Assembly (NCBI GenBank): GCA_900550445.1 | Contig: URSF01000001.1 | Location: 223 to 64,222, forward strand | DNA length: 64,000 nucleotides | Reading direction: 5' to 3' | DNA from: an uncultured Rhodospirillaceae bacterium | GTDB lineage: Bacteria; Pseudomonadota; Alphaproteobacteria; CAAGCB01; CAG-977 | Part shown: piece by piece, positions 24,616 through 39,906 of the stretch | Numbering within the stretch: the first letter of the stretch is position 1 | How the letters are laid out: the number at the start of each line of letters is the position of its first letter | The notes under the pieces: generated by a model | The model's input: the letters and a program-made list of their open reading frames with translations, nothing else | Told to the model about the DNA's origin: nothing | The model's database searches: none | Program-made: the position numbers and the translations under genes

Positions 24616-26697
24616 TTACCAGAAAAGCTGTCCGCCGAAACTTAAGTCTACGGGAATATCGGCTTTTGATCCGAAAAAACAGGAAAAATCTAAAAAGACG
24701 GCAAATTTTTCACTGATTTCCGCACTCAGTCCGGCTCCGGTTTCGTAGATTGTGTCCGTCATGTCTTCGATAAAATCGTATCCGGCGAATCGGACGGTGC
24801 TCTTTTTGTTAAATTCCCGCAAAACGGCGGCTTTCAGATAAACTTCAAGAGGCGCCTGATTCGTTTCCCTGAAATTTTTTCCGCCCATAACGCCGGCACG
24901 TCCCATGATCGAATCGGCGTTTTTGCCAAAAACGGGCGTATTCATGTCCGTACGGTAAGATATATCAGGCAAACGCATATAATAAGCCTGCAGCTGCGGT
25001 TTGACAAACCAGCCGTTTTTTGAAAAGCGCCGTCCGGCAGCACCGGAAAAGCTCCAAGCATTCAAACTGTATTTTGATCCGACTTTAAAACCGTTGGCCA
25101 GATAGCTGTCGATTTTTTGTTTGTGATGATAAAAAACACCTTCCAAATTAAAAGTGTAATCGTTTTGCGTCGTTGCCGACGTATAAAGGCCGACGCTGTT
25201 TGTGTAAGAATGTCCTTTGCCGGGATTATTGAATTTTTGTTCCGATTGAGAATATCCCCAGTAAATTCCTGCGATCCATTCTTTAAAATAATCCTGTTCA
25301 ATCGGCAGGTCAAAACCGATCTGCGTGCCGCGGACGTTCAGGCGGCTTTTTGTATCGTCTTTGAAATTCAGACGGATTTCCCGTCCCGTTCCGCGGATCC
25401 ATAAGCCGGTTTTTTTGGTAAAGCGGACTTCCTCCAGCCGTCGTCCCAGACTGTGCAGATGTGCATAAAATATGGCGTTGACAGCCGCGAAAGTATTTTT
25501 GGCAACGATTGATCCGTCATTTAAGTATGGCGTTTTGTGCAGTTGCCATGTATCGCCGACATGCGCCAGATCATAACGATAAGCGCCGATATCCGCCGCG
25601 CCGCCGATCAGGTAAAAATTCTGATCGGCATTATCCGTATTGATCAGCGTCAGTGTTCCCGGAAAGTCTTCCGAAGCGCTGTAGTCATAAAAAGCAATGC
25701 CGTAAGTACCGCTGCCGTTTCCGACTTTTAAAACGTCGGCGACGTGTTCCGAAACAGTTGTCGTCAGCCGGAATGTTCCGGTGCCATTTAAATTGTCAAT
25801 GGGAATTTCAGCGGAACTGATTTTAATGTTCACGTTTCCGTTATCCAGCAGCAAATCAGGAAGAGAAATCCCGGAATACAAGTTTAAATCGCCGTTTTTA
25901 ACAGTGGTCTGTCCGCTCAAAGAAGCGCTGCCGTAAACAAAGGCCGCGCCGCCGTCAATCGTCAGATTCGTCACCGTCGCCATATCGTTGATTTCCAGTT
26001 CTCCGCCCTTTACAACAGGAGCCGCGGCGGAAGCCTCGCTGTAAATTATCTGCCGTCCGCCGGCTAAAACGGAATTTTCAACCCTGCCGTAAACGTTTTG
26101 CCGTCCGCCGTCAATATATGTGCCGACAGCGGCGGAACCGTCGTCAACCTGCTGAATCCCGCCGGCATGAATCATCGTACCGTTTGCCGTGCCGCCATTG
26201 GTGACGATCTGTGTTCCATTGTAAATTTGTGTGCCGTTGTCGGTCCCGTAAACGTACTGACGGCCTGTGTTTAAAATCGTATTGTTGGCTTCGGCGCCGT
26301 TCCGGATATAAAGCGTTCCGCCGTTAACCGTCGTTGTGTTGGCGCTGCCGGCATAAACGGACATTGAACCGTAGGCGTTGACGGTCGAAAAATTGGCCGT
26401 TCCGTATACTTTTTGAACGGCATTCTGCATAATGACGGAATTTTCAGATTGCCCGCCGGCGTTAACGGTTTGCTGGGCGTATGTGTAAATCGTCGAATTA
26501 AAGGAATTTCCGCCCGACATAATATTCTGCGTGCCGTAAACGATCATATCGTTAACGGTGCCATAGACGTTTTGGGTTACAACGGTGGGGACGTTTCCGC
26601 CGTTGATTGTCGTTCCTGCGTCAACAACAGACGTTATCGCCGCGGATTGTTTTGCGAAAAAACATAAAAAGGCCGCAAAGACAACTAAGCGTATCAT
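24616..26697 (-). CDS. autotransporter (type Va) with repeat-rich passenger and C-terminal beta-barrel
   Basis: Signal peptide MIRLVVFAAFLCFFAKQSAA. The passenger carries reiterated motifs of roughly 19-20 aa (VYGT..N.T.I..GG.Q.V..GG.A..T.). The C-terminal ~270 aa show alternating beta-strand pattern and end in ...SFGGQLFW. Confidence 0.85.
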   Translation of the reverse strand: MIRLVVFAAFLCFFAKQSAAITSVVDAGTTINGGNVPTVVTQNVYGTVNDMIVYGTQNIMSGGNSFNSTIYTYAQQTVNAGGQSENSVIMQNAVQKVYGTANFSTVNAYGSMSVYAGSANTTTVNGGTLYIRNGAEANNTILNTGRQYVYGTDNGTQIYNGTQIVTNGGTANGTMIHAGGIQQVDDGSAAVGTYIDGGRQNVYGRVENSVLAGGRQIIYSEASAAAPVVKGGELEINDMATVTNLTIDGGAAFVYGSASLSGQTTVKNGDLNLYSGISLPDLLLDNGNVNIKISSAEIPIDNLNGTGTFRLTTTVSEHVADVLKVGNGSGTYGIAFYDYSASEDFPGTLTLINTDNADQNFYLIGGAADIGAYRYDLAHVGDTWQLHKTPYLNDGSIVAKNTFAAVNAIFYAHLHSLGRRLEEVRFTKKTGLWIRGTGREIRLNFKDDTKSRLNVRGTQIGFDLPIEQDYFKEWIAGIYWGYSQSEQKFNNPGKGHSYTNSVGLYTSATTQNDYTFNLEGVFYHHKQKIDSYLANGFKVGSKYSLNAWSFSGAAGRRFSKNGWFVKPQLQAYYMRLPDISYRTDMNTPVFGKNADSIMGRAGVMGGKNFRETNQAPLEVYLKAAVLREFNKKSTVRFAGYDFIEDMTDTIYETGAGLSAEISEKFAVFLDFSCFFGSKADIPVDLSFGGQLFW

Positions 26698-29592: not shown

Positions 29593-31825
<2,233 letters not shown>

Positions 31826-32120: not shown

Positions 32121-32420
32121 TTATTCGGCGATATCCGTGATCTTGACGATCGAGATATACTGACGATGACCGTTTTTACGACGATACCCCTGACGGCGTT
32201 TCTTTTTGAAAACGATAACCGTGTCATCGCGTGTCTGTTTGACGACTTTCGCCGAAACTTTGGCGCCGGCAACGGTCGGCGTACCGATTTTTTCACCGAG
32301 GGCAAGCACATTGTCAAATGTCACAGTAGAGCCGATCTCTGCATTGAGTTTTTCAATGACGATCACATCATCTTTTGCGACCTTATACTGCTTGCCGCCT
32401 GTCTTAATAACTGCGAACAT
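32121..32420 (-). CDS. rplU: 50S ribosomal protein L21
   Basis: [14 protein letters not shown]... ATG at 32420. Confidence 0.95.
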
Positions 32421-32536
32421 TTTCTTCACCATCTTATGAAATCTATAACAAAAGCAGAATTGTTCCGCTTTAAAGAGAGCTTTTTATAGCCAGAAATTCA
32501 GGGATTTGTCAACAGGATATTTAACATCGGGCGCAT

Positions 32537-33445
32537 TTATTTTTTCCGCGGGTGAATCTGGTCGGCAAATCTTTGCGCCAAACGGGAAAACGGCAGGGAC
32601 TGCACCCATACTTTCCCGGGGCCGCGCATGTCGGCGAAAAACAATCCGGACCCGCCGAAGATCTGCGATTTTATGCTGCCCGTTCCGGTAACGTTAAAGT
32701 ATACGGACGGCTGAAAAGCCACCAGACAGCCGACGTCAACCTGTAAAGATTCGCCTTCCTGCAGATCTATTTCGCCGATTGTCCCGCCGGCATGAATGAA
32801 AACGACTCCGTCGCCGCTGAGGCGTTGCATGATAAAACCGCTGCCGCCGAACAGGGCGGTCATAATCTTTTTTTGAAAATAAATGCCGATGTCGACGTCT
32901 GCCTGCGCGCATAAAAAGCTGTCTTTCTGGCAGATGATTTCCCCGCCGAATCCGGACAGGGACACCGGTATGATTTTGCCGGGATACGGAGCTGAAAAAG
33001 CGACTTTGGCAGGTTCGTCAAGCGTATTGATAAAGGAAGATAAAAACGCGCTTTCTCCGGACAACACCCGTTTGCCGGCGCCGAAAATCTTGCCGAAAAT
33101 GCTCTGTTTGCGGCCGGTTCCGAATAAAGCTTCCAGATCAACGGCCAATTCCTTGTAAATCATGGCGCCGGGTTCGGCGATGACGGCTTCTCCGGGCTGC
33201 AGGCATATTTCAACATACTGCATGTCGTCGCCGCAGATTTTAAAATCCAGGCCCGAGTTGAAATAAACGCCGGACGGCGGCGTTGTCTGCGATAAATTTG
33301 TTAAAACGGAAAAACGATCCGCCGGAACCCATTCGGGCATTCCTTCGCGCCAGACCAGACAATCCGGGTGAACTTGAATAAAACGGGAAGCGTCTTCCAA
33401 TGAAAAGGGGCCGTATTTTTGATTACCGGATAAACAATACCACAT
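32537..33445 (-). CDS. GYF_2 domain + AIM24 (DUF124/TIGR00266-like) fusion protein
   Basis: The N-terminal WYCLSGNQKYGPFSLED...LVWREGMPEWVPA is a GYF_2-type motif. The remaining ~240 aa show the AIM24-family pattern (LQPGEAVIAEPGAMIY..., GGSGFIMQRLSGDGVVFIHAGG, GPGKVWVQSLP). Confidence 0.7.
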   Translation of the reverse strand: MWYCLSGNQKYGPFSLEDASRFIQVHPDCLVWREGMPEWVPADRFSVLTNLSQTTPPSGVYFNSGLDFKICGDDMQYVEICLQPGEAVIAEPGAMIYKELAVDLEALFGTGRKQSIFGKIFGAGKRVLSGESAFLSSFINTLDEPAKVAFSAPYPGKIIPVSLSGFGGEIICQKDSFLCAQADVDIGIYFQKKIMTALFGGSGFIMQRLSGDGVVFIHAGGTIGEIDLQEGESLQVDVGCLVAFQPSVYFNVTGTGSIKSQIFGGSGLFFADMRGPGKVWVQSLPFSRLAQRFADQIHPRKK

Positions 33446-33469
33446 GGTTAATTCCTCCGATTTATTTTT

Positions 33470-34693
33470 TTAATATTTATGCAGCAGCGTCGTTCCGACC
33501 CGCCGGTTGCGCGGGTTTTTGGACATTAAGTGCTGAACATAACGTCCCTGGAACAGGGTGACGTTGTACTTTTTTGCAACCAGCAGAGCTTCTTCGTCGT
33601 CCACGCGGCATAAAATAGCCCGGTTCGGACCGATATTGATCAGGCGTTCGGTCAATTCGGCGTCTTCCTGCAGGGCAAAAGGCAAATCCTGATGCCACGT
33701 CAGTTTGACATAATCGGCTGACAAACGTTCCCGGTCGATAAATTTCAGCGTTTTGTATGTTACGCCGTCAATGCAGATCTTGTACCCCAGATTTTGCGCA
33801 TAATCCCTGGCTGTCAGATAAGAACGCAGATCGCTGAAAATATCAATCGGCTGCAGTTCCAGAACAATCGTGTTTTTCATACTGGAACGAATGTTGTCGT
33901 CAAATTCGCGGAATTCTTCGGACAGGATTGTCGAAATATTCAGGTTTAATGAAAAATCATGCGTAAAAGCGCCGTCGTCATGCCTGGAAACGCTGTTCAA
34001 AACACGTTTGTCCAGCGTTTCGGTCAGATCCTGAAACAGCCACGGTGTTGCCGTCAAAGAAACGCCCGGCAGAATCGATTCGCCCAGATCCGCGATTGAA
34101 ACAAAGACCTCTTCAAATAAAGGCTGCGGCTGGGCGTCTTCCAGAATGATACAGACGGACTGGCGGCGGATCATATTTGAAAAATCCGTATTTTGCAGCG
34201 CTTTGGATACGCGCGCCAGCATTTCCGGCGTAAACAGTTTTTGATTTTTATCAAAAACCGGCGGCGCGACAAATTTCTTCTTTTCTTTCTTTTCGCTTAA
34301 AACTCTGGCCGGCCCGTTGCCGATCCGCGAAATTTCATACGTCAGCGCTTCTTTGTCTTCGGGCAGGCTGTAAACCCTTTCCAGCAATTTTTCCGCCTGC
34401 ATTGTTTGTTTGTCGGCAGAAAAGTGCATCCATGTTTTAATCAATGCCGCCCGGACGGTGTTGTCGCTGATTTTGGGGGAGTAGACAATGAATATATCAT
34501 CGTTTTTCAGGCAAAAAGCCTGTCCGTACAAAGCCAAAACGTCATAAAAGCTGTTGACGATCGTATTCAGCAGACTGTCTTTGCGCAGCGTTTCGTCAAT
34601 CTGGGAAATTTTTAACTGCAAAACGGTCAGTTTTTGATCGGCTTTTATCGGGCCGGCCAGGTAATGGCGAAGTGGTTCTTCCTGATTAATCAT
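33470..34693 (-). CDS. degenerate EAL-like domain protein (paralogue 2)
   Basis: The C-terminal ~240 aa align by eye to EAL landmarks: RRQSV, FEEVFVS (EALxR), LNLNIS (N), VLELQP (ExxE), ICIDGV (DDFG), YVKLTW (KxD), LCRVDD (EGVE), FQGRY (QGY). Several catalytic positions are substituted. The N-terminal ~160 aa are unassigned. Confidence 0.55.
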   Translation of the reverse strand: MINQEEPLRHYLAGPIKADQKLTVLQLKISQIDETLRKDSLLNTIVNSFYDVLALYGQAFCLKNDDIFIVYSPKISDNTVRAALIKTWMHFSADKQTMQAEKLLERVYSLPEDKEALTYEISRIGNGPARVLSEKKEKKKFVAPPVFDKNQKLFTPEMLARVSKALQNTDFSNMIRRQSVCIILEDAQPQPLFEEVFVSIADLGESILPGVSLTATPWLFQDLTETLDKRVLNSVSRHDDGAFTHDFSLNLNISTILSEEFREFDDNIRSSMKNTIVLELQPIDIFSDLRSYLTARDYAQNLGYKICIDGVTYKTLKFIDRERLSADYVKLTWHQDLPFALQEDAELTERLINIGPNRAILCRVDDEEALLVAKKYNVTLFQGRYVQHLMSKNPRNRRVGTTLLHKY

Positions 34694-35958
34694 CAGCGGC
34701 TCCCTTTGTTGTATTCAATCGGCATATCTAACCGTTCCGGCATCAGGCAGCCCGCCTTTTGCGCGCCGGCGATACCGGCTTTTCTGGAAACGCACTGCGC
34801 CTGCGTGCAGTTTTTTCTCTGCGGGCAGCTTTTTCTGATTTTCGCCGCCGTCAGCGCGTCAATAAAATATCCCTGAAATTTCCGGATATTGTGCATTAAT
34901 CCCCAGCGCAGAGAATCTTCGTCTTCACAACGCATTAAGATTATGCGTTCCGGGTCGATTTCTCTCAGCCTGTCCGATTCGGTTTCTTTATTCAGCGCCG
35001 GCGTCCAGTTTAATTTCATCAAATCCGAATCCAGAATGTTCATGTCCATGAACTCAAAAGAAATCGGGTGCAGACCGTCGATTAAAATCTGATGCCCCGC
35101 TTCATGCAGTAAATCCCGGGCGACCAGATAATTTTGGGTGTTCTGAATAATATCCATCAGCTGGACTTCGACAATAATCGACATGTTTTCAGGCATTTCT
35201 GCCAAAAACTGTTCAAAAGCCGGCGTAAAAATAGTGGAAATGTTTAAATTCAACGAAATGTTTTTCGGCGTATGCGCAAACAGTTCCTTGAAAATGCCCA
35301 GCATTCTTTTATCCAGCGTTTCGCTGAGGTGTTGAAAAAGCCAGCGGTTGGATAAAACGTTTACGTCGGGGGCGATCGCTTTTTTCAGATCGGCCATGGA
35401 CGTAAAATATTCCAGAAACAGTGAAGAAAGGCCGCCTTCGGGCGTGATTCGGACGGCTTCCTGCCGGCGGATAATTTTTAAAATATTGAATCCCTGAATA
35501 TTGCGCAGAATTGCGTCCAGATGTTCGGGAGCCAGCGGAATTTCTTTTTTTTGAAACTGTTGGTTTTCAACGGCGGCCTGCCGTTCTTTGGCATAAGCCA
35601 TAACCATATCAAAATCACGGTTTAAAGGATAAACGCGTATAAAATCATTAGGGTGAGACGCGGCAAAAGAATCGGACTGAAATATCCGCCGGATAGAAGA
35701 AACCGTGTCCGTCAGCGACTGCGGCAGGATATTCTGTCCGACGACCATAATGTCGTTGTTGGACAGCACGAACAGTCCGGATTGTGATTTGATAATCAGT
35801 TCGTTCAGGGCGCCGAGCGTCATCTGAACATGGTTTTGCGTGCGGTTGGCCGGATTAAGCGCGGATATCTTTACAAGAAGAGCCGTTGAACCCGCTTTCA
35901 TCGGTTCAATGCGTTTTAATTTGTCAAGAAGCTGCTGTTCCGCTTTTGCCGCGCTCAC
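34693..35958 (-). CDS. degenerate EAL-like domain protein (paralogue 1)
   Basis: Same architecture and landmarks as 33470..34693 (LEYFTS, LNLNIS, IVEVQL, ILIDGL, MKLNW, LMRCEDED, FQGYF). Its stop overlaps the start of paralogue 2 by 1 nt. Confidence 0.55.
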   Translation of the reverse strand: MSAAKAEQQLLDKLKRIEPMKAGSTALLVKISALNPANRTQNHVQMTLGALNELIIKSQSGLFVLSNNDIMVVGQNILPQSLTDTVSSIRRIFQSDSFAASHPNDFIRVYPLNRDFDMVMAYAKERQAAVENQQFQKKEIPLAPEHLDAILRNIQGFNILKIIRRQEAVRITPEGGLSSLFLEYFTSMADLKKAIAPDVNVLSNRWLFQHLSETLDKRMLGIFKELFAHTPKNISLNLNISTIFTPAFEQFLAEMPENMSIIVEVQLMDIIQNTQNYLVARDLLHEAGHQILIDGLHPISFEFMDMNILDSDLMKLNWTPALNKETESDRLREIDPERIILMRCEDEDSLRWGLMHNIRKFQGYFIDALTAAKIRKSCPQRKNCTQAQCVSRKAGIAGAQKAGCLMPERLDMPIEYNKGSR

Positions 35959-36002
35959 AAAGAATCCTTTCCCTCCCGTTTTCCGGGATTATCTTAATTA
36001 TC

Positions 36003-37139
36003 TTATTTCAGGTACAAATGGACTTCCGTTGTCTGAATGGAAGCGCTTTTTGTTTTTGAAGAATAAATACGGCTTTCCGGCAATCCCATAGAAATCAGAG
36101 AATTGCGGACGGCGTCGGCATTTTTTGCGGCTTCGGTTTCGCCGGATTTCGCGTTGGACGGGCTGACGGCGACAATTTCAAAATTTGTGTTTGGGCGTTT
36201 ATCCAAAGCGGCTTTGACGGCTTTGTACAAAGACTGTTCATACGCGACGTTTTTTTTGTTAAATCTGATCACCATTAACGGCCTGCGTCCGTTCAAATCG
36301 GCGTCAGGCAGATAAGCCGCCGCGGATAACAGAGCCGGAGCCGCAGGAACCGAAACGGCCGCCTGCGGTCTGGCATTTACCATACTGCCGCTTTGAATGT
36401 CCGTGCCCAGCATATTGATATTCTGGCTTTCCGTGCTGAAATACTGCTGCTGGCGGGCGATTTGAGCAGAAACATCGGAGCTTAAACGGTTTAAAGAAAC
36501 AACCGTTTGATTCGCCTGATCTTCCAATGCTTTTAAGTTTTCATGGTCGATTTCCATCGCTCCGGGAATCAGGAACGTTTCTCCGATCGTATCCAGCAGA
36601 GAATTCAATTCGTTTTTGGTGCGGATTATTTCGCTGGACAGTTTTGCGGTTTCGGACATGTTTTTATCCGATCCCGTTAATAAGGCGGAAGCCTGTTTCC
36701 ACATTTCCGTCAGTTCGGGGTTTCCCGGTGTGGTTCCGATCTGCAACCGGGCGTGAATACGGGCGACGTATTCATAGTACTGGCGTGATTCTTCGGCATT
36801 TTTATTCTTCAGTTCACGGAAGACTTCCGTATTTTTTCTGATGTTTTCCTGAATCTGCTGTAATTTGGTTTCGATCGCGGCGACTTTTTTACTGACTTCG
36901 GAAACGATCTGCGTGTTGGCCGTATAGGTGGAATCCTGAGGCTTTTCGGTTTTAGCCCGCGGTGTTTCGGCGGTTTTTTCCTCAGCCTTTTTTGCAGCCG
37001 GCTTTGTTTGTTCGGATTCAGAGGACTGCATTGCGAAATCATCGGCGAAGTAATCGTCGGAATAAGGATCTGAAGACGACGCGCAGCCTGCAAAAGTCAG
37101 TAATGCGGCTGCCAAAGAGAGTCTTTTAAGAATGGACAT
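36003..37139 (-). CDS. lipoprotein with coiled-coil region and degenerate OmpA-like C-terminal domain
   Basis: Lipobox LLTFAGC. Acidic/Lys-rich linker and long helical region. The C-terminus, VIRFNKKNV...FEIVAVSP...AAKNADAVRNSLISMGLPESRI, resembles the OmpA_C pattern but lacks the usual D/R peptidoglycan-binding residues. Confidence 0.55.
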   Translation of the reverse strand: MSILKRLSLAAALLTFAGCASSSDPYSDDYFADDFAMQSSESEQTKPAAKKAEEKTAETPRAKTEKPQDSTYTANTQIVSEVSKKVAAIETKLQQIQENIRKNTEVFRELKNKNAEESRQYYEYVARIHARLQIGTTPGNPELTEMWKQASALLTGSDKNMSETAKLSSEIIRTKNELNSLLDTIGETFLIPGAMEIDHENLKALEDQANQTVVSLNRLSSDVSAQIARQQQYFSTESQNINMLGTDIQSGSMVNARPQAAVSVPAAPALLSAAAYLPDADLNGRRPLMVIRFNKKNVAYEQSLYKAVKAALDKRPNTNFEIVAVSPSNAKSGETEAAKNADAVRNSLISMGLPESRIYSSKTKSASIQTTEVHLYLK

Positions 37140-37298
37140 GGTTTCGAATACCTTAAAAAGTTAAGAAAACTGCGCAATTTTCCAGCCTGTCTTTTATTTT
37201 ATAAAAAACGGCACTTTTTAGAATGTACCGAGAAATAGCGCTTTTGCAAGAAATTTTATTATAAAATGAATTTGTTGTCATTTTTTGTAAAAAAAGTC

Positions 37299-37327
37299 TT
37301 GCAAGGATTATTTCATCGTCGTATATA
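37299..37327 (+). promoter_or_regulatory. sigma70-type promoter of tRNA-Arg
   Basis: TTGCAA, 17-nt spacer, TATATA. The -10 element ends 12 nt before the tRNA 5-prime end. Confidence 0.55.
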
Positions 37328-37339
37328 AGATTTGCTTAA

Positions 37340-37416
37340 GCGCCCATAGCTCAACTGGATAGAGCATCTGACTACGGATCAGAAGGCTGAGAGTTCGAAT
37401 CTTTCTGGGCGCGCCA
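37340..37416 (+). tRNA. tRNA-Arg (ACG)
   Basis: 77-nt cloverleaf GCGCCCATAGCTCAACTGGATAGAGCATCTGACTACGGATCAGAAGGCTGAGAGTTCGAATCTTTCTGGGCGCGCCA. Anticodon loop is CUACGGA. Confidence 0.95.
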
Positions 37417-37587: not shown

Positions 37588-37677
37588 AGAAAACGGCGCC
37601 GATTTTTCATACTATGTCGATCTTTACAAATTTTCTTTTCGATTCGACAATATCTTTTTTTATTGAAAGGATCGGCT

Positions 37678-38040
37678 ATGAAAATCTTGGTTATGACCAT
37701 ATTGTTTTTTGTTTCTGCCTCCGTTCAGGCGCAGGCGGAAACGTGCGCTGAAAAAAAATCGAAGATTCAACTGCAAATCCAACAGGCGCAGGCGAATCAG
37801 GAGCTGTTTAAGATCCGCGGCCTTGAAAAGGCTTTGCGGGGCGTTGAAGAAAACTGTTCCGATGAGAATCTGGCGGAAAAACATCAGGCAAAGATTCGCG
37901 ATAAACAGGCCGATGTCGCCAAAGCCGAAGCGGACTTGAAACAGGCGGAAATAAAACAGGACGCGGAAAAAATCAGAAAAAAATCCGAAAAGCTGGAAAT
38001 AAAAAAACTGGAATTGCAGGATACCATACGGGATTTTTAA
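37678..38040 (+). CDS. DUF1090-family periplasmic protein
   Basis: Signal peptide MKILVMTILFFVSASVQA, conserved Cys pair (ETCAEKK...ENCSDE), and a Lys/Glu-rich helical body. Preferred start is the ATG at 37678. Confidence 0.7.
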   Translation: MKILVMTILFFVSASVQAQAETCAEKKSKIQLQIQQAQANQELFKIRGLEKALRGVEENCSDENLAEKHQAKIRDKQADVAKAEADLKQAEIKQDAEKIRKKSEKLEIKKLELQDTIRDF

Positions 38041-38041
38041 T

Positions 38042-38914
38042 ATGAAAACGCAAAAGGCTTTCTTTGCCGGCGGGTGTTTTTGGGGAATACAAGCTCTGTT
38101 TGATTCTGTCCCGGGCGTAACGGCGACTCGCGTCGGTTATATGGGCGGAAAAACCGAAAATCCCGATTACCGTTCCGTTTGTTCCGGCCGGACCGGCCAT
38201 GCCGAAACCGTCGAAGTCGAATATGACGCCGAAAAAGTCAGTTACGATTCTTTGCTGGATTTGTTTTTTGCCGCGCATGATCCGACCAGTCTGAATAAGC
38301 AGGGGCCGGATATCGGAACGCAATATCGCTCCGCTGTTTTTTTTACGGACGAAAATCAAAGACGGGCGGCTTTGAACAAAGCTGAAGAACTGACTCGGGC
38401 GGCCGTTTTCCGAAAACCTGTCGTTACTCTGATCGTACCGGCGGAATCGTTTTATCCGGCTGAAGAATATCATCAAAAGTATTTTGAAAAGAATCCTCAA
38501 ACAGCGGTCTGCCATGTTCCTTTTATTCCGCGCGGAACCGTCGGCGAACAGGAGCTGCGCCGCCGTCTGACGCCGGATCAATATGCCGTTTTGCGCCAGG
38601 GGCGGACGGAAGCCCCTTTCAGCGGGAAGTATTTTCGTAAAACGGAGGACGGCACTTATTGCTGCGCCGCCTGCGGCAACGCAGTGTTTTCTTCGGAAAG
38701 CCAGTTCGACAGTCCCTGCGGTTGGCCAAGCTTTGATAAAGCGATCGGCGACAGTGTGCGTCTGAAACCGGACCTGTCATATGACATGATCCGCACCGAA
38801 GTCGTCTGCGCGCAATGCGGTTCTCATCTGGGGCATTTGTTTAATGACGGTCCGACACGGACCGGAGAGCGATTCTGTATTAATTCCGCTGCCATGAATT
38901 TAAAAAAATCATAA
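38042..38914 (+). CDS. msrAB: bifunctional peptide-methionine sulfoxide reductase MsrA/MsrB
   Basis: N-terminal MsrA (FAGGCFWG) and C-terminal MsrB (CCAACGNAVF...GWPSF...CAQCGSHLGHLF). Confidence 0.9.
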   Translation: MKTQKAFFAGGCFWGIQALFDSVPGVTATRVGYMGGKTENPDYRSVCSGRTGHAETVEVEYDAEKVSYDSLLDLFFAAHDPTSLNKQGPDIGTQYRSAVFFTDENQRRAALNKAEELTRAAVFRKPVVTLIVPAESFYPAEEYHQKYFEKNPQTAVCHVPFIPRGTVGEQELRRRLTPDQYAVLRQGRTEAPFSGKYFRKTEDGTYCCAACGNAVFSSESQFDSPCGWPSFDKAIGDSVRLKPDLSYDMIRTEVVCAQCGSHLGHLFNDGPTRTGERFCINSAAMNLKKS

Positions 38915-38942
38915 AAAAAGCCTCATAAAGAGGCTTTTTTTT
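38913..38942. terminator. bidirectional rho-independent terminator
   Basis: Hairpin gcctc(ataaa)gaggc flanked by an A-run and a T-run, between convergent genes. Confidence 0.65.
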
Positions 38943-39906
38943 AAGCTTCCGGTTCGCGGAACAATGGTTTGCCCTGAAACATACGCGCCGACTGCGATTC
39001 CATTAAAGTACCCAGAGCGATCTGCCTGTCTCTGATACTGATGCGCAGCTGGTCTGCCGCCGTCGGATCGGGATTGGCAAAAACAAAGCGCACTTCAGGA
39101 AACATTGTTTTAATTCCCTGTAATTTCTGATGAATAACGCCCAGAATACCGCGGCCCAGCAGGTCTGCGGCCAGTTCTTCGCTTAAATCCGCGCTCATGG
39201 CGTATTTAATAACGGAATTCAGCGCGTCTTCCACACTGTTGGCGTGAATGGTCGACAGCACCAGATGGCCTGACGTCGCCGCGCGCAGAATCTGGCTGGC
39301 GCAGTCGGGGGTTCGGATTTCGCCGACCAGAATATATCTGGGGCGGCAGCGCAGAGCCGATTTCAAAGATTCGCCCCAGTCGTTGTTATCCGGTTCCGTC
39401 TGTTTGCACATGCCTAAACCGCCGCGTTTGGACTGATAAATACCGTCCAGCGGCATTTCGGGCGGATCTTCAATCGTATAAGCATAGCCGCCTTCGCGTT
39501 CCAGGAATTTACGCATCAGGCAGGAAATGGAGGTTGTTTTCCCTGCGCCCGTCGGCCCGGCCCATAGAATCAGTCCGGATTCGCGGTTTAAAGAAATTAA
39601 ATGATTCGTAACGGCTTCCGGCAGTCCCAGTCTGACGACGTCCGGCGTCTTGCGGGGCATGCGTCGGGCGGAATACATAATGCCCGTTAATGTCGCAACG
39701 CGTTCGACGCGGTACATCGTGGAACCGTAAGCCATAGAGTAACTGGATCGTCCCGTATAGGCTCTTTCCAAAGCCTGATGGAATTCTTCCGCGTCGTCCA
39801 CCTCCAGCACTTTTAACCCGAAGCGTGTTTCTCCGTCATGAACGTATAAAGTATGATCGGGCGTGTACCAGATATCTGAAAAAAGTTGTTCGTCAATTGT
39901 TGCCAT
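38941..39906 (-). CDS. PilT/PilU-like secretion-family ATPase (orphan)
   Basis: Walker A GPTGAGKTTS, Asp box TIEDPPE, Walker B YILVGEIR and His box GHLVLSTIHAN. C-terminal QLRISIRDRQ resembles the PilT AIRNLIRE helix. Confidence 0.8.
   Translation of the reverse strand: MATIDEQLFSDIWYTPDHTLYVHDGETRFGLKVLEVDDAEEFHQALERAYTGRSSYSMAYGSTMYRVERVATLTGIMYSARRMPRKTPDVVRLGLPEAVTNHLISLNRESGLILWAGPTGAGKTTSISCLMRKFLEREGGYAYTIEDPPEMPLDGIYQSKRGGLGMCKQTEPDNNDWGESLKSALRCRPRYILVGEIRTPDCASQILRAATSGHLVLSTIHANSVEDALNSVIKYAMSADLSEELAADLLGRGILGVIHQKLQGIKTMFPEVRFVFANPDPTAADQLRISIRDRQIALGTLMESQSARMFQGKPLFREPEA

Follow-up and report, generated by a model that had tools for sequence, protein, structure and literature searches.

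The DNA analysed here (the window) is a stretch of 64,000 nt from an uncultured Rhodospirillaceae bacterium (contig URSF01000001.1), and this text concerns a cassette of four genes located in it between a tRNA-Arg gene and rplU. The genes encode a lipoprotein, two paralogues named A and B, and a GYF-AIM24 protein. All four are on the minus strand, and positions given without a locus number follow the numbering of the window (Table 1). An earlier note on this DNA had described four packed same-strand genes of no known function, and both the layout and the lack of a known function were borne out. The intergenic gaps are 44 (lipoprotein/A), -1 (A/B) and 24 nt (B/AIM24). The stop codon of A and the start codon of B overlap as TGATG, with an AAGGGAG Shine-Dalgarno sequence ahead of the overlap, and the AIM24 gene has the Shine-Dalgarno sequence GGAGG. 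Because each of the four open reading frames (ORFs) has many homologues, they are, judged by their sequences, real genes and not chance ORFs. The four-gene set is probably a lineage-specific operon of independently distributed genes, and is not a conserved four-part module. Its conserved unit is the A-then-B tandem, which is an evolutionary and probably also a functional unit.

Table 1 Features of the four-gene cassette, its flanks and one related locus.
Feature	Position	Strand	Remarks
Lipoprotein gene	36003-37139	-	378 amino acids (aa)
Paralogue A gene	34693-35958	-	421 aa, GTG start; degenerate GGDEF-like domain (SNNDI), degenerate EAL-like barrel, C-terminal Cys4 tail
Cys4 motif of A	34747-34827	-	C-X5-C-X4-C-X14-C (Cys378, 384, 389, 404); putative Zn or Fe-S site
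Paralogue B gene	33470-34693	-	407 aa; degenerate GGDEF-like domain (KNDDI), disordered linker 131-150, degenerate EAL-like barrel ~156-392
GYF-AIM24 gene	32537-33445	-	302 aa
tRNA-Arg(acg)	37340-37416	+	upstream flank of the cassette
rplU	32121-32432	-	downstream flank; rpmA, obg and proB next, also on the minus strand
Promoter-like site, ATGACA-N17-TAAAAT	37253-37281	-	upstream of the lipoprotein gene; best of the region by consensus match and conservation
Promoter-like site of rplU, TTGACA-N18-TATAAA	32483-32512	-	in the gap after the AIM24 stop codon
Intrinsic-terminator-like hairpin	31783-31812	-	13-bp stem and T-run, between rpmA and obg; first strong one downstream of the cassette
Hybrid kinase-pair arrangement, locus L036	20-1471 and 5182-6435		example; ~40 other loci alike (L036-L086)

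The rplU-rpmA-obg-proBA block named in the earlier note was found as far as proB; the gene after it, in the proA position, belongs to the aldehyde-dehydrogenase family. A mobile island at the tRNA-Arg gene was rejected on account of the tRNA adjacency and non-coding region kept in nine aligned relatives, of the clade-wide synteny of the coding block and of an unremarkable base composition. PADLOC defence models matched no system among the four cassette proteins, the lipoprotein giving coiled-coil noise alone (E 0.0016).

Among 1.84 billion representatives, a profile search found a large A/B family, with 1437 clusters at E <= 1e-3 and 569 clusters at E <= 1e-30 (50% identity). Nearly all cluster members were 400-430 aa long, and the source names that could be retrieved were all uncultured Alphaproteobacteria or Rhodospirillales metagenome-assembled genomes (MAGs). 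A scan with one genome per species yielded 78 loci, mainly from gut and rumen MAGs, including Acetobacter sp. CAG:977, 'Azospirillum sp.' UMGS bins and Candidatus Scatocola. It was run with alignment A1, the broader alignment A2 having too little conserved stretch. In tblastn searches with the window proteins, 77 of the 78 loci had A directly upstream of B in the same orientation, and the last was cut by a contig end. The tandem was also present in L001-L005, L087 and L088, and the A-B gaps were mostly between -4 and +12 nt.

The other two genes had a much narrower distribution with the pair. Adjacency of lipoprotein, AIM24 and rplU genes was limited to the 25 loci nearest to the window (L009-L033) and to the metagenome loci L001-L005 and L088. 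Within this gut clade, the lipoprotein gene was present wherever enough sequence was available (23/23 loci) and the AIM24 gene in 23 of the 25, being missing in L031 and L033, as well as in L001/L002 and L088. The AIM24 protein lacked its GYF domain in L026-L030 and L032 and, among the metagenome loci, in L004 and L005. A hidden Markov model (HMM) search within 8 kb of the pair found no lipoprotein and no AIM24 gene in the 53 other loci. The co-occurrence that the note had proposed to look for among neighbourhoods thus held in the clade of the window and failed beyond it; with A-B as the sole universal linkage, its view of the four genes as one conserved system was not upheld.

In the other loci, the pair has a different neighbour. 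A hybrid histidine kinase gene (HisKA, HATPase_c and receiver) preceded it on the same strand in 40 of the 50 evaluable loci, with a kinase-pair gap of 42-91 nt in 39 of the 40. A divergently transcribed [FeFe]-hydrogenase gene adjoined this arrangement in a second gut alphaproteobacterial clade. In L087, a non-gut MAG, the pair stood alone. For a distant single-copy family member (record P0275), the neighbours were a Dot/Icm type IVB secretion cluster and a divergent gene with PAS + HD_5 (HD-GYP-like) domains. One contig of the window's clade (L032, CAVCSV010000002.1) is filed as Limosilactobacillus gorillae and is probably mis-binned, because it carries the alphaproteobacterial lipoprotein-A-B-AIM24-rplU block. 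Its paralogue B is in two pieces, by a frameshift or an assembly error.

A and B share 31% identity (E 8e-46), and the description of the middle genes as tandem paralogues was therefore correct. The Pfam EAL family (PF00563, gathering threshold 31.3 bits) scored 30.8 bits on B and 16.3 bits on A, and many A/B orthologues carry a precomputed PF00563 match. B was modelled with AlphaFold2 from 16 homologues (predicted local distance difference test, pLDDT, 79). Over its whole length, the model matched tandem GGDEF-EAL structures in Foldseek (E 2e-12 to 1e-9), with RbdA/PA0861 (5xge) as the top match (2e-12), followed by V. cholerae LapD, P. fluorescens LapD, MorA and PA0575. EAL-only structures were matched at ~1e-7. 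A search of PDB chains with the single sequence of B gave nothing useful; only the family profile reached the EAL domains of RbdA and V. cholerae LapD, to which it was aligned. Alignments of the A and B HMMs to E. coli PdeH and PdeK were insignificant, though the motif placement was consistent.

The N-terminal halves were assigned by hhalign. Their joint A+B profile aligned with six E. coli GGDEF domains over 114 columns (probability 83%, E 8.6e-6), which placed N-D-D-I of the family onto G-D-E-F of the GGDEF domain. The window proteins read SNNDI (A) and KNDDI (B) at this position. The GG(D/E)EF motif of diguanylate cyclases is absent, the commonest versions being P/K-N-D-D-M/I in B and S-N-G/N-D-F/I in A. 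Because of the tandem matches in Foldseek and the alignment to GGDEF domains, A and B are stand-alone degenerate GGDEF-EAL proteins, with neither a sensor nor a membrane domain. A KKFVxPP motif in B (residues ~139-146, window ~34256-34279) is kept in the window's clade within an otherwise disordered linker. A link between this motif and the GYF domain was considered and dropped, as loci without GYF have the motif too. A literature search found no functional study of this A/B GGDEF-EAL subfamily.

Active-site residues were called from the alignment of the family profile with the RbdA EAL domain, from motif spacing and by published criteria, over 76 distinct B and 77 distinct A sequences. An active EAL domain needs seven catalytic or Mg-site residues, in RocR E175, N233, E265, E268, D295, K316 and E352 (Seshasayee et al. 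2010, PMC2952852). Five of the seven are kept in the family: the equivalents of E175, N233, E265, D295 and K316 are invariant or nearly so, as is the QG motif. E268 is replaced by L or P; where RocR has the general base E352, B carries Cys and A either Ala or Met. The earlier note had called these genes EAL-like with substituted catalytic residues, which holds for E268 and E352; the description was incomplete, having missed the degenerate N-terminal GGDEF domain and the cysteine tail of A.

Further losses concern the second metal and the recognition of cyclic di-GMP (c-di-GMP). The second-metal Asp, D296 in RocR, is G, S or E; R179 is S or A; D318 is mostly hydrophobic (I/F), with T or N in some sequences. 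From the recognition set Q161, R179, D296 and D318, only the Gln is plausibly kept (Q178 in B). Instead of the loop 6 motif DDFG(T/A)GYSS, B has IDGVTYKTLKF and A has IDGLHPISFEF. Each paralogue has retained one complete metal site (Glu, Asn, Glu, Asp), together with the Lys and the Gln, and there are further invariant acidic residues near the site (Asp284 in B, Asp269 in A, and Asp365 in B). Since the general base and the second-metal Asp are gone, A and B should bind a nucleotide-type ligand and not hydrolyse it. A, B or both could instead hydrolyse, in a metal-dependent reaction, a different substrate such as a linear or some other cyclic nucleotide. The strict conservation, in both paralogues, of all first-metal ligands with the Lys and Gln, and of the additional Asp residues, would fit such an activity; the classic inactive receptors, FimX and LapD, keep less of the site than this. 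However, a site with Cys, Ala or Met in place of the general base, and with D296, E268 and loop 6 gone, is not intact by the criteria of PMC2952852, and we consider such a hydrolase quite unlikely.

Paralogue A ends in a tail with four cysteines (Table 1). The motif was invariant in all 77 distinct A sequences and was also found in the distant loci L087 and L088. A Pfam scan of the tail gave no family, only a sub-threshold match to the Nab2 CCCH zinc finger. The tail probably holds Zn or an Fe-S cluster.

The most conserved stretch of B, TPWLFQDLTETLDKRVL, is a helix outside the catalytic motifs. This helix, the loss of most c-di-GMP recognition residues and the fact that no diguanylate cyclase was seen nearby would all suit a ligand-independent, protein-binding regulator similar to the EAL-like anti-activator YdiV, in which the conserved site residues have a structural role only. 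Yet more than 150 sequences, from both paralogues, have the four metal ligands, the Lys and the Gln invariant, which is difficult to account for if neither a metal nor a ligand is bound. We therefore regard a purely protein-binding role as rather unlikely.

The first gene of the cassette encodes a protein with a lipoprotein signal peptide and a lipobox (MSILKRLSLAAALLTFAG/C, FAG/C), which qualifies it as a bacterial lipoprotein. The lipid-attachment residue, Cys19, is kept in at least 90% of 22 aligned homologues. In the AlphaFold2 model (pLDDT 77), a disordered linker extends to about residue 77 and is followed by a three-helix bundle (81-250), with helices of ~50 residues each and with the invariant motifs RLQxGTTPGNP and GA.E.DH in its turns. 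An alpha/beta domain of probable OmpA-like fold forms the C-terminal part (285-378). Foldseek matched this domain to OmpA-like peptidoglycan-binding domains alone, and weakly (E 2e-3 or weaker; template modelling score to target 0.4-0.63), and Pfam OmpA (PF00691) scored 15.6 bits against a cut-off of 27.2 (E 0.021). These weak matches agree with the degenerate OmpA-like end that had been read from the sequence. Other alphaproteobacteria encode homologues of 31-38% identity as solitary genes, with no EAL genes close by; a phosphoribosyltransferase gene adjoins them in two of the three contexts inspected.

The fourth protein is, from its domain matches, a clear member of the TIGR00266/AIM24 family (TIGR00266, 103.1 bits, cut-off 96.6). 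As had been proposed, GYF_2 is fused to AIM24. The GYF_2 domain occupies aa 2-45 (45.3 bits, cut-off 25.8, 7e-12) and AIM24 (PF01987) aa 68-284 (219.7 bits, cut-off 25.7, 4e-65), and the protein matches P. aeruginosa PA3696 (1yox) at 2e-70. The same architecture is found at 50-54% identity in Gammaproteobacteria, Desulfobulbaceae, Negativicutes and Acidobacteriota, with neighbours unlike those of the window in the two contexts inspected. No paper on the function of bacterial AIM24/TIGR00266 proteins was found in a literature search.

Only upstream of the lipoprotein gene does the cassette have a conserved putative promoter region. This non-coding DNA (window 37140-37340, minus strand) is 78% identical across nine species. 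Besides the best promoter-like site, it contains a TTGCAA-N16-TACATT pair, two invariant palindromic CTTGCAA boxes ~53 nt apart and, ~25 nt ahead of the lipoprotein ATG, the invariant near-palindrome GGAAAATTGCGCAGTTTTCT. The boxes and the near-palindrome could be operator sites or form a hairpin in the 5' untranslated region. RNAalifold showed no covariation in the conserved region, and Rfam (E <= 1) matched no riboswitch or leader over 31.0-38.5 kb other than the tRNA. A scan of the minus strand detected no convincing terminator within the cassette or after the AIM24 gene. One mRNA for all four genes, as the operon-like layout had suggested earlier, is plausible because of the common strand, the tiny gaps, the translational coupling, the single conserved upstream promoter region and the lack of a convincing internal terminator.

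With a promoter-like site in the 104 nt that separate it from the AIM24 stop codon, rplU probably has a promoter of its own. The rules of the promoter scan had passed over this site, as its -10 hexamer ends in A, and it was read directly. Read-through from the cassette into rplU is possible. The hairpin between rpmA and obg suggests that rplU-rpmA is a transcription unit apart from obg-proB. A weak Rfam match, 'Termite-leu', coincides with this hairpin.

With these data, the four proteins could be imagined as one envelope-to-cytoplasm system, in which the lipoprotein would sense the envelope, the EAL-like pair would sense a nucleotide and AIM24 would be the effector. The same strand, the tiny gaps and the shared promoter region agree with it, as does the gene order in the window's clade (lipoprotein 23/23, AIM24 23/25). 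This order persists down to 32-34% lipoprotein identity (L033, L088), with variable genes further upstream. Several findings oppose it. The pair has no lipoprotein or AIM24 gene within 8 kb in 53 other species-level loci; AIM24 was lost in L001, L031, L033 and L088, and GYF in six window-clade loci; the GYF-AIM24 protein occurs in other bacterial groups, among unrelated neighbours in the two contexts inspected, and lipoprotein homologues stand alone beside a phosphoribosyltransferase gene. Further, no membrane-spanning component joins the periplasm to the cytoplasm. Since the clade keeps synteny over the whole block as far as rlmH, adjacency is weak evidence. An integrated four-part system is therefore improbable.

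We regard as an even call that A and B form a paired, heterodimeric pseudoenzyme which binds a nucleotide-type ligand and is embedded in a lineage-specific operon; each of the three alternatives above is less likely. Three observations weigh against it. First, in the window's clade the lipoprotein gene stays with the pair down to the low identities given above while the genes further upstream vary, so that the two may be functionally linked within the clade. Second, the EAL assignment is under the Pfam cut-off in both window paralogues. Third, a scan of the window plus 1.31 Mb of related loci with a GGDEF HMM derived from E. coli found no canonical cyclase; the scan covers this neighbourhood only and cannot settle whether the pair-carrying genomes make c-di-GMP.

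Under the pseudoenzyme reading, A and B, two ancient paralogues that each join a degenerate GGDEF domain to an equally degenerate EAL barrel, would be made in equal amounts through translational coupling and act as a heterodimer. Their EAL-like barrels, with a single metal site, would bind rather than hydrolyse the ligand, which may be c-di-GMP or a relative, and perhaps is not c-di-GMP. The tail of A, with its Zn or Fe-S cluster, would be a structural or redox input, and the output would go through protein-protein contact, in the manner of LapD/FimX-type receptors. In the gut lineage, a periplasmic or outer-membrane lipoprotein, with a helical bundle and a degenerate OmpA-like domain, is encoded 5' of the pair and the widespread GYF-AIM24 protein 3' of it. 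Transcription of this operon would start from the conserved region near 37.25 kb, with a separate promoter for rplU.

Several other genes of the window are of note. On the plus strand (window 37663-38914), a secreted DUF1090 protein (125 aa) and an MsrA-MsrB fusion (290 aa) are encoded with a 1-nt gap. A stand-alone secretion ATPase of the T2SSE family (PilT/VirB11-like, 321 aa) is encoded at 38941-39906 on the minus strand, with no secretion genes beside it in the annotated part; in L004 and L005, VirB4-like genes are located upstream of the cassette. A 693-aa protein (24616-26697, minus strand) has pertactin and AIDA-stalk matches. The domain scan gave no autotransporter beta-domain match for it, and its L003 counterpart has one.

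Degenerate GGDEF-EAL proteins form a known class, in which c-di-GMP receptors and regulators acting by protein binding have been described, largely as single multidomain proteins from model Gammaproteobacteria; the pair is not a new kind of system. New here are the strictly conserved, coupled pair, the half-kept catalytic site, the loss of most c-di-GMP contacts and the invariant Cys4 motif. A bolder proposal, which we find doubtful, is that A and B are the first members of a large unstudied family, in which pseudo-GGDEF-EAL proteins are obligately paired and act as a metal- or redox-gated heterodimeric switch whose ligand is not c-di-GMP or which needs no cyclase. If true, this would be a new type of second-messenger-like module, wired to clade-specific partners, with the envelope lipoprotein and AIM24 in this lineage and a hybrid histidine kinase in other loci. 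The pair is widespread in uncultured host-associated Alphaproteobacteria, and its ligand and partners would reveal signalling of poorly known gut bacteria. Their identification would also widen the known roles of EAL-like pseudoenzymes.

Among known systems, the LapD/FimX-type receptors (3pjw, 6pwj/6pwk, 4j40) share with A and B the tandem GGDEF-like and EAL-like fold with degenerate motifs. They are among the top whole-protein structural matches of B, and A and B are likewise expected to be non-catalytic. LapD has transmembrane/HAMP and FimX has REC/PAS input domains, whereas A and B have neither and are stand-alone proteins of ~400 aa. They also differ in being an obligate tandem paralogue pair, in having one metal site fully kept, in the loss of R179, D296 and D318, and in the Cys4 tail of A. 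With active EAL phosphodiesterases (RocR, RbdA/PA0861, PdeH), they have in common the EAL TIM-barrel fold and the equivalents of E175, N233, E265, D295, K316 and QG, but they lack E268, D296, D318, E352, R179 and loop 6, and score below the Pfam EAL threshold. The lipoprotein resembles Pal, YfiB and the C-terminal domain of OprF in its lipobox and probably in the OmpA-like fold of its C-terminal beta-alpha-beta domain. In contrast to these, it has a long three-helix bundle with GTTPGNP ahead of the domain, is sub-threshold in Pfam OmpA and, by eye, has not kept the Asp/Arg positions for peptidoglycan contact (KNADAV for RRAxAV). The fourth protein is a TIGR00266/AIM24 member like PA3696 (1yox), with no notable difference; it is its position beside the pair that is lineage-specific.

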